DNA from: Planctomycetota bacterium
Lineage (GTDB): Bacteria > Planctomycetota > Brocadiia > Brocadiales > Bathyanammoxibiaceae
Direction of reading: 5' to 3'
Assembly (NCBI GenBank): GCA_016209685.1
Contig: JACQVQ010000006.1
Coordinates: forward strand, 3,184 to 67,183
Length of the DNA stretch: 64,000 bases
The notes beneath the pieces are model-generated. The model ran no database searches and was not told the DNA's origin. It saw nothing but the letters and a program-made list of their open reading frames with translations. The translations under genes and the position numbers were made by a program. Shown in pieces: positions 34,929 to 36,854 of the stretch. Every line of letters begins with the position of its first letter. The stretch's first letter is position 1.

Positions 34929-35120
34929 GTGGCTGGTGCAGGTGGATTTTTTCAAAGGCTTGTCAGCAGGCCGGGGGTCTCCGTAAGTGTGAGCTTTATC
35001 CTGGCCATATTTATCGGGGCGGGGTTCCTGAGTCTGCCCCAGACCACCGTGGACCGGAGAGAACTGCCCTTTATTGACGCCCTTTTTATCGCAACTTCAG
35101 CCACCTGTGTGACGGGTTAA
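34929..35120 (+). pseudogene. N-terminal stump (63 codons) of a high-G+C KtrB/TrkH-type K+ transporter gene
   Basis: ...[43 protein letters not shown] reproduces the first TM helix and first selectivity-filter motif of TrkH/KtrB proteins (compare PFIDALFVATSGISTTG in 35140..36492). It stops immediately where the low-G+C segment begins. Confidence 0.7.
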
Positions 35121-35139
35121 CGGTCTGCGACCTAATAAA

Positions 35140-36492
35140 CTATCCTACCAATATTTCTCCTTCTGGATACCTAAGGAGTTCCGGCTTAGGTCTTCCAAAT
35201 AGTGAAAAACCTATAGCTAGCGGTCCTATACGGCCAATGAACATAGCAATAGTCAAAAATATTTTTCCAACAATACTCAGGTTGGGAGTGATTCCCATGG
35301 ATAACCCTGTATTACTGAGGGCAGATGTACTCTCAAATAAAATCTCTAGAAAAGACGCATTTTCTATAGCCGCTAACACCGCTACATCTATTATCAACAC
35401 TAAAACAAATGAAAGAAATATAACGAAAGATCTGTGTACTGTTTCATCAGGAATTGCTCTTTTGAAAATATGAACATAGCTCTTCCCCCGAAATAATGAA
35501 ACAAGGGACACGAACATTATCCCCAGAGTGGTAGTTTTAATTCCTCCCGCTGTCCCACCCGGGGAGGCACCTATAAACATTAAAACTACGAGTGTAAAAA
35601 GGCTGGTATGGCTCATCTTTGCAATATCTATAGTATTAAACCCATCGGTTGTGGAGGCAGAAATTGTTTGAAAAGAGGAGAGCAACAATCTATCTCCGAG
35701 AATAACTGAGGGAGGCCACTCCTCTGAGACGAATATGACCGCTGTTCCGATAGATAGAACAATTATTGTGACCAGCATTGCCAATTTGCTGTGGGCTGAT
35801 AATTGCCTGGGCCTCTCACGTTTAATAGTTTTTACAGTTAATATAAAAATATCGTATAATACGTAAAATCCAATTCCTCCAATTATGGAGAGGATGTCAA
35901 TAACCAGGTTAACAGTAATGTTATCCTGGTAAGGCATAAGACTATCGGGGAAAGGTGAAAATCCAGCAGTGGAGAAGGCCGATACTGAGTGGAAAATCCC
36001 CAGGTAGATTGCATGAGATACAGAAAAATCACGTAACCAGTAGGAACTCAGAATAGCTGCGCCAATAAATTCGAAAGAGAAAGTGAATATCAGCACTAGC
36101 GTAAAAAATTTAGCGAACCCCTCTGCCAGACTTGCCCCTTGTAGTGATTCTCTTCCAGCCAGCCCCATTCTTAAGGATAGCTTCATACCAAAAACATATA
36201 CTAAAAAAACATAAAATGTCATATAGCCTATTCCACCGATTTGAAAGTCAATTAGCAGGACTATTTGTCCAAAAAGGGAATAAAAACTACCTATGTCTAC
36301 AACCGTTAACCCGGTGGTACTTATTCCGGAAGTCGCTACGAATAAAGCGTCTATAAAAGGTTGACGTACCCCTTTAGACGAAGCTATTGGTAAAGTTAGA
36401 AGGGCAGCTATAATTAGCGTAGTAAAAGCGTAGCCTATTACCAAAAGTCGAATAGGCGTAAAAAATCTCAAAAACGTTCGTAACTTTGCCAT
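35140..36492 (-). CDS. TrkH/KtrB family K+ uptake membrane subunit (low-G+C copy)
   Basis: A 450-aa polytopic protein with repeated filter-like motifs (ATSGISTTG, SAFSTAGF, ASTTDGF, SALSNTGL). It is clearly A+T-rich compared with its flanks. Confidence 0.85.
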   Translation of the reverse strand: MAKLRTFLRFFTPIRLLVIGYAFTTLIIAALLTLPIASSKGVRQPFIDALFVATSGISTTGLTVVDIGSFYSLFGQIVLLIDFQIGGIGYMTFYVFLVYVFGMKLSLRMGLAGRESLQGASLAEGFAKFFTLVLIFTFSFEFIGAAILSSYWLRDFSVSHAIYLGIFHSVSAFSTAGFSPFPDSLMPYQDNITVNLVIDILSIIGGIGFYVLYDIFILTVKTIKRERPRQLSAHSKLAMLVTIIVLSIGTAVIFVSEEWPPSVILGDRLLLSSFQTISASTTDGFNTIDIAKMSHTSLFTLVVLMFIGASPGGTAGGIKTTTLGIMFVSLVSLFRGKSYVHIFKRAIPDETVHRSFVIFLSFVLVLIIDVAVLAAIENASFLEILFESTSALSNTGLSMGITPNLSIVGKIFLTIAMFIGRIGPLAIGFSLFGRPKPELLRYPEGEILVG

Positions 36493-36854
36493 TGTTTAAA
36501 TCTTCTAAAGTATTTGGTGTAGTTTGAAAATTCTTGTGAAATTAAAACCGCTTGAATATACCTCAAAAGTTAATAAAATCAATGAGTTTAAGGACTCCGG
36601 AAAGGAAGTCTTACGCAACCAGGGAAAGGATACTATTTTTTGAGTTTATTAGGCTAAGGGATTTTAAGGGCGTAGAAGGAGGCTTCTGGCCATACCAGGA
36701 ATAGTTCCCTAAGGAACACGTAGCAGTGGGATGAACTAGGGGCCAGGCCCCGCACCACGCAGGGTGCAGGGCTTGCCATATACCCGTAGCTGTGAACCCC
36801 ACGTGGTTCACAGGGCTAGGGAGTAGGGGTTAGAAAAGAAGGAGGTCTGGATAC

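Follow-up and report, generated by a model that had tools for sequence, protein, structure and literature searches.

The window, by which we mean the whole 64,000-nucleotide stretch of contig JACQVQ010000006.1 (assembly GCA_016209685.1) analysed here, comes from Candidatus Tripitaka californicus (Planctomycetota, Brocadiia, Hypogeohydatales), whose genus has been described as a new anammox lineage from subsurface aquifers (bioRxiv 10.1101/2023.04.27.538623). It contains a locus for the potassium transporter KtrAB at which the gene of the membrane subunit, ktrB, has very probably been displaced in situ by a xenologous ktrB of low G+C content, inserted in the inverted orientation. A first-pass annotation had read the locus as an orthologous replacement by horizontally acquired DNA that left the stump of the original gene, and this reading is supported by an ancestral allele found in two related lineages (L011 and L097), by the synteny of the surrounding genes, and by the position of the incoming protein in a divergent clade.

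The elements on which that reading was built are present in the sequence as described. A 63-codon open reading frame (ORF) at 34929..35120 on the plus strand is followed, at a spacing of exactly 19 nt, by a complete 450-codon TrkH/KtrB ORF at 35140..36492 on the minus strand, and the three hand counts of G+C that accompanied them (22/60, 19/60 and 41/60) were all exact on recount. A sliding-window profile, which the annotation had proposed as a check together with codon composition, falls from a G+C fraction of 0.56-0.58 to 0.36-0.42 between ~35100 and ~36700, and the G+C fraction at third codon positions (GC3) of the 450-aa gene is 0.348, compared to 0.64-0.71 in the neighbouring genes and a median of 0.65 across the 45 long ORFs of the window, elsewhere in which only two small ORFs have a GC3 as low. 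The partner gene ktrA at 36855..37541 on the plus strand, which had been called native-looking, encodes TrkA_N and TrkA_C domains and has a GC3 of 0.69. The parts of the locus are given below, where L011 (Planctomycetes bacterium RIFCSPHIGHO2_12_FULL_52_36) is the sister lineage used as the native reference, and L009 is a Logan contig (SRR22387958) that spans both junctions of the insert at 96% identity.

34834..34928, plus strand: native cytochrome-ktrB intergenic region, mostly collinear with L011 and presumed to hold the former ktrBA promoter and ribosome-binding site (RBS)
34929..35133, plus strand: what is left of the 5' end of the native high-G+C ktrB (the 5' stump), roughly codons 1-69, from alignment to L011 and L009
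35113..35124 with 36302-36313, no strand: 12-nt perfect inverted repeat CGGGTTAACGGT, from an inverted-repeat scan and a reading of the sequence
35131..35141, no strand: left arm of a perfect 11-nt inverted repeat, CCTAATAAACT, overlapping the foreign stop codon and the left junction; conserved in L009
35134..36653, minus strand: imported low-G+C segment (insert core), G+C 0.36-0.42, unmatched in L011 and 96% identical in L009, with the same junctions
35140..36492, minus strand: foreign ktrB, 450 aa, KtrB subfamily of TrkH/SKT transporters, from Pfam and structure matches
36552-36579, plus strand: candidate promoter toward ktrA, TTGAAT-16-TAAAAT, from a consensus scan; divergent from the ktrB candidate
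36555..36582, minus strand: candidate promoter of the foreign ktrB, TTGATT-16-TATATT, ~63 nt upstream of the start, from a consensus scan
36643..36653, no strand: second arm of the 11-nt inverted repeat, AGTTTATTAGG, where the low-G+C DNA ends on the right; conserved in L009
36654..36694, no strand: 41-nt filler separating the right inverted-repeat arm from the native 3' remnant, without a significant match to the native locus
36695..36734, plus strand: 3' remnant, in which ~13 final codons of the native ktrB survive (PGIRYPEEHVAVG and stop), from local alignment to L011 4715-4754
36735..36854, plus strand: native ktrB-ktrA spacer with the ktrA RBS, from alignment with L011 and L009
36855..37541, plus strand: native ktrA, the RCK ring subunit (TrkA_N E=5e-25, TrkA_C E=1e-11)

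The flanks of the L011 locus are 93-95% identical to those of the window at the nucleotide level, and the encoded KtrA, cytochrome and tetratricopeptide repeat (TPR) proteins are 96, 95 and 96% identical in amino acid sequence. Between its cytochrome gene and ktrA, L011 carries an intact ktrB of 453 codons on the plus strand, with a G+C of 0.52-0.58. A more distant relative, L097 (KtrA 82% identical), has a native-type ktrB of 79% identity in the same arrangement, and its gene order, dxr-ispG-cyt...ktrB-ktrA-TPR-ruvCAB-queH, is that of the window locus. Homologs of the native type follow the taxonomy of the Brocadiia, from 95 and 89% (Brocadiales) through 81-79, 72 and 69% (Hypogeohydataceae YC38) to 52-54% (Brocadiales, Bathyanammoxibius) at the far end of the gradient. 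The native KtrB aligns over its full length to the B. subtilis KtrB structures (E=9e-77), and the native allele persists in many samples. The comparison of synteny in relatives that the first-pass annotation had suggested thus finds an intact native ktrB at the same position in both L011 and L097, and the ancestral order appears to be cytochrome gene, ktrB (453 codons, high G+C) and ktrA, surviving in sister lineages.

The short plus-strand ORF is collinear with the 5' end of the intact L011 gene, and contains, as had been proposed, the first transmembrane helix (M1) and the first selectivity-filter motif of a KtrB protein, TSATCVTG(LTVCDP). By blastn, high-scoring segment pairs connect the window to L011 at 33363-34899 and 34903-35132 with 93% identity, and the stump itself is 92.6% identical to L011 nt 3368-3597 over 231 nt, its product being 92% identical to residues 1-63 of the L011 protein. 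This 63-aa product groups with native KtrB proteins in public 90% clustering, and lacks a Pfam match by itself because the ORF is too short; the first filter motif is common to it and the foreign 450-aa gene product, with 16/33 residues identical. Compared to L009 and L011, the stump has suffered two 1-nt deletions. One, in the G run at 35114-35116, creates the TAA stop codon at 35118-35120, and the other, in a C run at ~35131, turns GACCCT into GACCT. At the same place L009 and the native L011 gene read on as TGLTVCDP, and the stump ORF of L009 (P0121) continues into the antisense of the foreign gene for a total of 91 aa. The stump, with its frameshifts, is therefore a decaying pseudogene. 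The proposed truncation after 63 codons therefore describes the ORF, which does stop at 35120, and not the native homology, which runs to 35133. Of the remains of the old gene, only the 5' stump had been named, and a 3' remnant had been missed, which carries a 2-nt deletion and ends in the stop codon TGA at 36732-36734.

The junctions are mapped to the base on the left and to a few bases on the right. On the left, native homology extends to 35133 (GACCCT) and is followed by the terminal part of the foreign gene in reverse complement; the border is ambiguous by 3 nt, CCT being common to the native and the imported sequence, and CCT and CTATCC constitute the microhomologies at this junction. On the right, the low-G+C DNA ends near 36653, and the 41 nt of filler lead to the native 3' remnant from 36695. 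Native codons ~70-440 have been replaced by ~1.5 kb of DNA with 39% G+C, which shows no homology to the native locus of L011 and consists of the foreign ORF, an upstream region of ~160-200 nt, and only ~6 nt past the stop codon. The left junction is also spanned by the Logan contig L002 (SRR12113426) and the right one by L004, a contig of a second metagenome-assembled genome (MAG; GCA_052360745.1), and a second species, Tripitaka sp. YC43, has the same gene pair arrangement. According to the first-pass annotation, the replacement would be contradicted by relatives with the same arrangement and a normal composition, or by a stump from an unrelated protein family; L009 and YC43 are equally low in G+C, and the stump aligns to KtrB.

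The annotation had also pointed to 35121..35140 and ~36600..36650 as places where short direct repeats might be found, and there are none at the junctions. Instead, the insert is bracketed by the perfect 11-nt inverted repeat, to which we return below. The 12-nt inverted repeat most likely reflects the shared TGLTV motif: the stump copy and the copy in the foreign gene, which are 1 nt out of register, both encode T-G-L-T-V of the filter. We rejected it as a site for swapping N-termini, in that the copies are 1 nt out of frame and the product still meets a stop codon. The 10-nt CTGGCCATAT/C repeat (35001 and 36686) was not significant. Derivation of the 41-nt filler from a second, fragmented copy of the native 5' end was likewise discarded: its spliced-alignment score of 14.5 was reached by 111/2000 shuffles, and the opposite strand scored 15.0, as high as the test strand.

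The incoming gene encodes a complete transporter subunit. Its product matches the Pfam family PF02386 (TrkH) with 186 bits over residues 40-425 (cut-off 27, E=1.2e-54), and residues 8-450 align to 12-445 of B. subtilis KtrB (8k1s, E=2.4e-80), with a further match to 4j7c. Its 450 aa agree with the length of KtrB, ~445 aa, a protein that lacks the additional D0 helices found at the N-terminus of TrkH. The four P-loop glycines are kept (STTGL, STAGF, TTDGF and SNTGL, aligned to TVTGL, NNAGF, RTAGF and GTVGL), and the D3M2b gating loop (GGIKTTT) is present, GASPGGTAGGIKTTT being aligned to GAGSASTASGIKLTT. Identity to the native type of KtrB is 35-37% (36% for the L011-type protein), and in trees of the 450-aa protein, another of the checks proposed at the outset, it belongs to a clade separate from the native type. 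Named members of this clade, at 54-57% identity, come from many phyla, the hosts including Nitrospinota, Calditrichota, Omnitrophota, Sedimentisphaerales and Saganbacteria, and uniformly low-G+C contexts such as L098 look donor-like. Carriage of the gene by a phage was considered and rejected, the closest match in viral contigs being only 38% identical. Between the window and L009, the foreign ktrB has 0.015 non-synonymous differences per non-synonymous site (pN) and 0.060 synonymous differences per synonymous site (pS), a ratio of 0.24; pN/pS of ktrA is 0.06-0.14. On these values the foreign gene, which is intact, is under purifying selection and selectively maintained.

We propose that illegitimate recombination deleted native codons ~70-440 and put in ~1.5 kb of low-G+C DNA, in what would have been a one-step, double-ended event. 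The inserted DNA would have brought in an entire ktrB from another clade, together with the region upstream of it and inverted relative to the native gene, and the event would have left over the 5' stump, which would since have been decaying by frameshifts, and the 13-codon 3' remnant. The foreign KtrB and the native KtrA ring would then assemble for K+ uptake. Their compatibility is suggested by the C-terminal tail of the foreign KtrB, RYPEGEILVG, which resembles the native RYPEEHVAVG, and by the recurrence of the same pairing in L096 and YC40 (see below); the KtrA of the window is 96% identical in amino acid sequence to those of L011 and L096, and 82% to those of YC40 and L097. Expression must also have been rewired. 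The foreign ktrB diverges from ktrA, and the imported AT-rich spacer holds promoter-like hexamers on both strands, the number of such sites in a scan for promoters and terminators being not above shuffles (6 found versus 3.8 +/- 1.8). The foreign ktrB would now be read divergently from ktrA out of this spacer, and ktrA can no longer share a transcript with a functional ktrB upstream, which leaves it either a promoter in 36493-36854 or antisense read-through across the insert. The old promoter upstream of the stump, if active, would transcribe antisense into the foreign gene. A search of 34700-37000 for a c-di-AMP riboswitch of the ydaO type or any other Rfam element returned nothing relevant at E<=1, its sole match being a chance-level lysM-TM7 inside a coding sequence.

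Low-G+C ktrB alleles of the same foreign clade also lie beside ktrA in other genomes. We refer to the allele of the window and L009 as allele A, and list the others with the identity of their flanking genes and of the allele.

L096: cytochrome 96% and KtrA 95.6% aa; allele B, 72% aa and 75.5% nt, an intact ORF in direct orientation
L008 and L117: TPR side 95% nt, ktrA 89-92% nt; allele A', 80% aa, between ktrA and the TPR gene
YC40 (L007): flanks ~80% nt; allele of 60% aa, GC3 0.31, in direct orientation
L014: KtrA 46% aa; a ktrB of the foreign clade, then a 3' remnant of a native-like ktrB (70-93 aa)
L015: KtrA 38% aa; a ktrB of the foreign clade, with a 3' remnant (70-93 aa) after it and a 5' stump before it

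In L096 the allele is accompanied by a 31-codon stump (native codons 4-31) and a 23-nt filler derived from native codons 138-146, and there is no 3' remnant. Allele A', in two contigs whose flanks are 92-95% identical to the window in nucleotide sequence, is convergent with ktrA and replaces the first ~110 nt of the ktrA-TPR spacer, and downstream of the YC40 allele 36 codons of the native 3' end remain, with 72% identity to L011 residues 418-453. A bootstrapped neighbour-joining tree unites A and A' at 100%, and B, L014 and P0004 likewise at 100%; a monophyletic grouping of the alleles of the Tripitaka complex receives 0% support, and YC40 falls elsewhere. As a background, we scanned metagenomes for loci with KtrB relatives of 35-55% identity, a set which contains only relatives of <=55% identity and no new haplotypes, and found a short TrkH remnant in 0/80 of them. 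These comparisons support at least three independent captures in the Hypogeohydataceae (A/A', B and YC40), with four configurations in the family, and the number of configurations rises to at least five when hosts with a KtrA only 38-46% identical are included. The junctions differ between loci every time, which makes a site-specific mechanism unlikely; the explanation that we favour as the most likely is that illegitimate insertion-deletions were filtered by strong selection for a foreign KtrB beside ktrA. One could also speculate, although we consider it rather unlikely, that the low-G+C ktrB clade behaves as a self-replacing allele, which in Brocadiia and related aquifer bacteria would time and again enter the resident ktr locus or a site next to it.

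Some of these loci have further features of their own. In YC40, two small hydrophobic ORFs without a Pfam match (L007 2651-3195 and 3497-3958) lie between the cytochrome gene and ktrB, and the ktrB itself has an in-frame N-terminal extension of ~154 aa, giving a product of 594-606 aa. The 3' remnants of L014 (1817-2068) and L015 (1921-2202) are open over their whole length of 70-93 aa and stop 9-11 nt short of ktrA, and may be recent or kept through coupled ktrA translation.

The same data bear on two other explanations of the locus. Had an ancestor carried a high-G+C and a low-G+C ktrB side by side next to ktrA, with differential loss of the paralogs and low G+C kept by selection, one would understand why the low-G+C clade adjoins native ktrA in Tripitaka, YC40, L008 and L117, why alleles grow less similar to that of the window roughly as their hosts become more distant (L009, then L008, then YC40), and why GC3 is low in all hosts. 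Such an ancient pair is nevertheless quite improbable, given that both intact genes occur at no locus, that the foreign gene lies inside the native one with stumps on both sides, these being local and 93-96% identical to L011, and that junctions, orientation and position differ among genomes whose flanks are 92-96% identical. Divergence points the same way: between the window and L096 the number of synonymous substitutions per synonymous site (dS) is 0.95 in the cassette compared to 0.13 in ktrA, and in the tree allele B is joined, with 100% bootstrap support, to alleles of a host that shares only 46% identity in KtrA. We attach a similarly low probability to a mobile or invertible cassette of 1.52 kb, non-autonomous, with 11-bp terminal inverted repeats and a recombinase or transposase encoded elsewhere. 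Such an element would account for the perfect 11-nt inverted repeat at both composition borders, which is conserved in L009 and which shuffles of the border zones reproduce with p ~0.001, although this test was post hoc, and also for the differing positions of related alleles around ktrA. It is at odds with the lack of a target-site duplication, with the lack of a transposase or recombinase gene in or beside the segment, with the same orientation of all independent allele A contigs, and with the sister cassettes, since no terminal inverted repeats were found on those of L096, L008, L007, L014 and L015, and no non-coding ends are common to the different low-G+C alleles, homology stopping within a few nt of the ORF.

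Of the specific forms that such an element could take, a transposon or an element resembling a miniature inverted-repeat transposable element was rejected in spite of the 11-nt repeat, there being no target-site duplication, no transposase ORF, and no repeats on the sister cassettes. An invertible phase-variable switch was rejected on the single orientation of the allele A contigs and the lack of a recombinase gene nearby, and an integron gene cassette, in which attC would lie downstream of the ORF, on the mere ~6 nt of imported DNA between the stop codon and native sequence. Finally, a low-G+C fragment of another organism could have been stitched into the contig during assembly or binning, the window being part of a MAG contig and the Logan contigs of two samples breaking at ~36750-36774. 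This is next to impossible: the junctions recur in L002, L004 and L009 and the arrangement in YC43, high-G+C native sequence lies on both sides of the insert, and the break coincides with a 65-nt indel polymorphism, its probable cause, and not with a junction. The presence of the junctions in independent assemblies and samples therefore effectively excludes an artefact.

Several observations nonetheless weigh against in-situ xenologous displacement in the form proposed here. Simple illegitimate recombination leaves the 11-nt inverted repeat at the borders unexplained, and repeated capture at the same locus is without an explanatory mechanism. Another ktrB or trkH may lie elsewhere in the genome, and the closest low-G+C alleles (80-58% identity), all on short contigs, point to no particular donor lineage. 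The cassette is also 2-3 times less diverged at synonymous sites than its flanks: between the window and L009, its pS of 0.060 (20/332 sites) lies below that of the cytochrome gene (0.173), ktrA (0.113) and the stump (0.207). An extra step is therefore needed, and the low value suggests that allele A spread, or was homogenised by recombination, after the window and L009 lineages split. The pN/pS of the stump is ~0.25 and not ~1, albeit from 17 differences only (7 non-synonymous and 10 synonymous); a higher value would be expected for a long-dead pseudogene, and the low one would fit differences inherited from functional alleles. Compatibility with KtrA, function in K+ transport, and the promoters are all read from sequence.

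Displacement of this kind has parallels. Xenologous gene displacement in situ, giving rise to mosaic operons, was reportedly described by Omelchenko et al. in Genome Biology in 2003. As in those cases, one gene of a conserved neighbourhood has been swapped for a distant homolog while its partners remained native; unlike in them, both stumps and an intact sister allele are kept and the junctions are readable to the base, the incoming gene is inverted and the operon broken, and the same foreign clade has been captured several times in one species complex. The concept is cited in passages of PMC1779527 and PMC9425974. With KtrAB of B. subtilis (4j7c, 8k1s) the locus has in common the full-length KtrB alignment, the four MPM filter glycines, the gating loop and an adjacent RCK gene of the ktrA type; it differs in an identity of ~35-40% as judged by eye, in having no c-di-AMP riboswitch or other Rfam element, and in that its activity is predicted. 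Low-G+C surface-polysaccharide loci, such as those for O-antigen and capsule, exchange alleles by homologous recombination in their flanks and thus have common junctions. Several divergent low-G+C alleles at one locus between conserved native flanks are found there as here, but the ktrB alleles differ from one another in their illegitimate junctions, their orientation and their position, and they encode an ion transporter of the inner membrane, not a surface antigen. In transformable bacteria, homology-facilitated illegitimate recombination can combine the insertion of foreign DNA with the deletion of resident DNA at short junction microhomologies. The CCT and CTATCC of our left junction resemble these, whereas there is no long anchor, the KtrB types having only short motif-level identities such as the 12-nt CGGGTTAACGGT.

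For the transporter family itself, a comparison can be made with trkG of E. coli, a gene low in G+C. Encoded on the Rac prophage, TrkG is a TrkH homolog that was acquired and that functions together with the resident TrkA (PMC5811629; Schlosser et al. 1995 cited there). Both cases would pair a horizontally acquired membrane subunit of the TrkH family with a resident cytoplasmic RCK subunit, this pairing being predicted in ours. The trkG gene is, however, an extra prophage copy located elsewhere, with trkH retained, whereas here the resident gene has been destroyed and there is no phage context. Within the family trkG is the closest precedent, and one of addition, not replacement.

The spacers around ktrA contain other small insertions. 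The 65-nt polymorphism mentioned above is an insertion at 36748-36812, upstream of ktrA, that includes the palindrome GTGAACCCCACGTGGTTCAC and is missing in L009 and L011. It occurs once in the window and in no contigs other than those of T. californicus, on which grounds it was rejected as a dispersed repeat, and its predicted fold is not unusual (z = -1.6). L011 has its own G+C-rich palindromic insert of ~170 nt between ktrB and ktrA (~4800-4975; CCCCCTCCCTTGAGGGGAGGGGG...CCCTCCCCCCTCAAGGGGGAGG), and since L011 and the window each have a spacer insert of their own, small elements seem, from these two sequences, to land repeatedly around ktrA. In the ktrA-TPR spacer, window positions 37570-37620 hold several copies of GCGGAATG. 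The gene that follows (37765-39096) encodes a protein of 443 aa with TPR repeats and two C-terminal domains of the RNA polymerase alpha subunit (PF03118, E=9e-36), an unusual architecture that is conserved downstream of ktrA in all Tripitaka-like relatives. Farther away, two low-G+C islets look like further small acquisitions, one at 52435-52911 with a PIN/DUF3368-like ORF (GC3 0.40), and one at 54331-54816, between lpxI and lpxD, with a weakly DUF2721-like membrane ORF (GC3 0.29). Positions 1-10500 of the window have a G+C of 0.44-0.50 and a gene GC3 of 0.45-0.55, the rest being at ~0.57 G+C.

The locus is an unusually well-preserved example of in-situ xenologous displacement. Most in-situ orthologous replacements are deduced from trees when the event itself is long past; here the ancestral allele, the stumps and the junctions are all preserved, which lets the mechanism of insertion-deletion, the decay of remnants and the rewiring of an operon be studied directly. 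The native KtrA ring apparently accepts a KtrB only ~36% identical to the original, which bears on the modularity of the KtrAB interface. Should the low-G+C clade indeed be self-replacing, this would call for a targeting mechanism, or for recurrent strong and perhaps frequency-dependent selection on KtrB, for instance if KtrB were the target of a phage or toxin, or if mixed KtrB dimers were harmful and only replacements survived. The repeated capture of such alleles in an uncultured species complex of aquifer anammox bacteria suggests that K+ uptake, or KtrB itself, is under strong selection in this habitat, and a system in which it recurs is well suited to asking why replacements land at the homologous locus.

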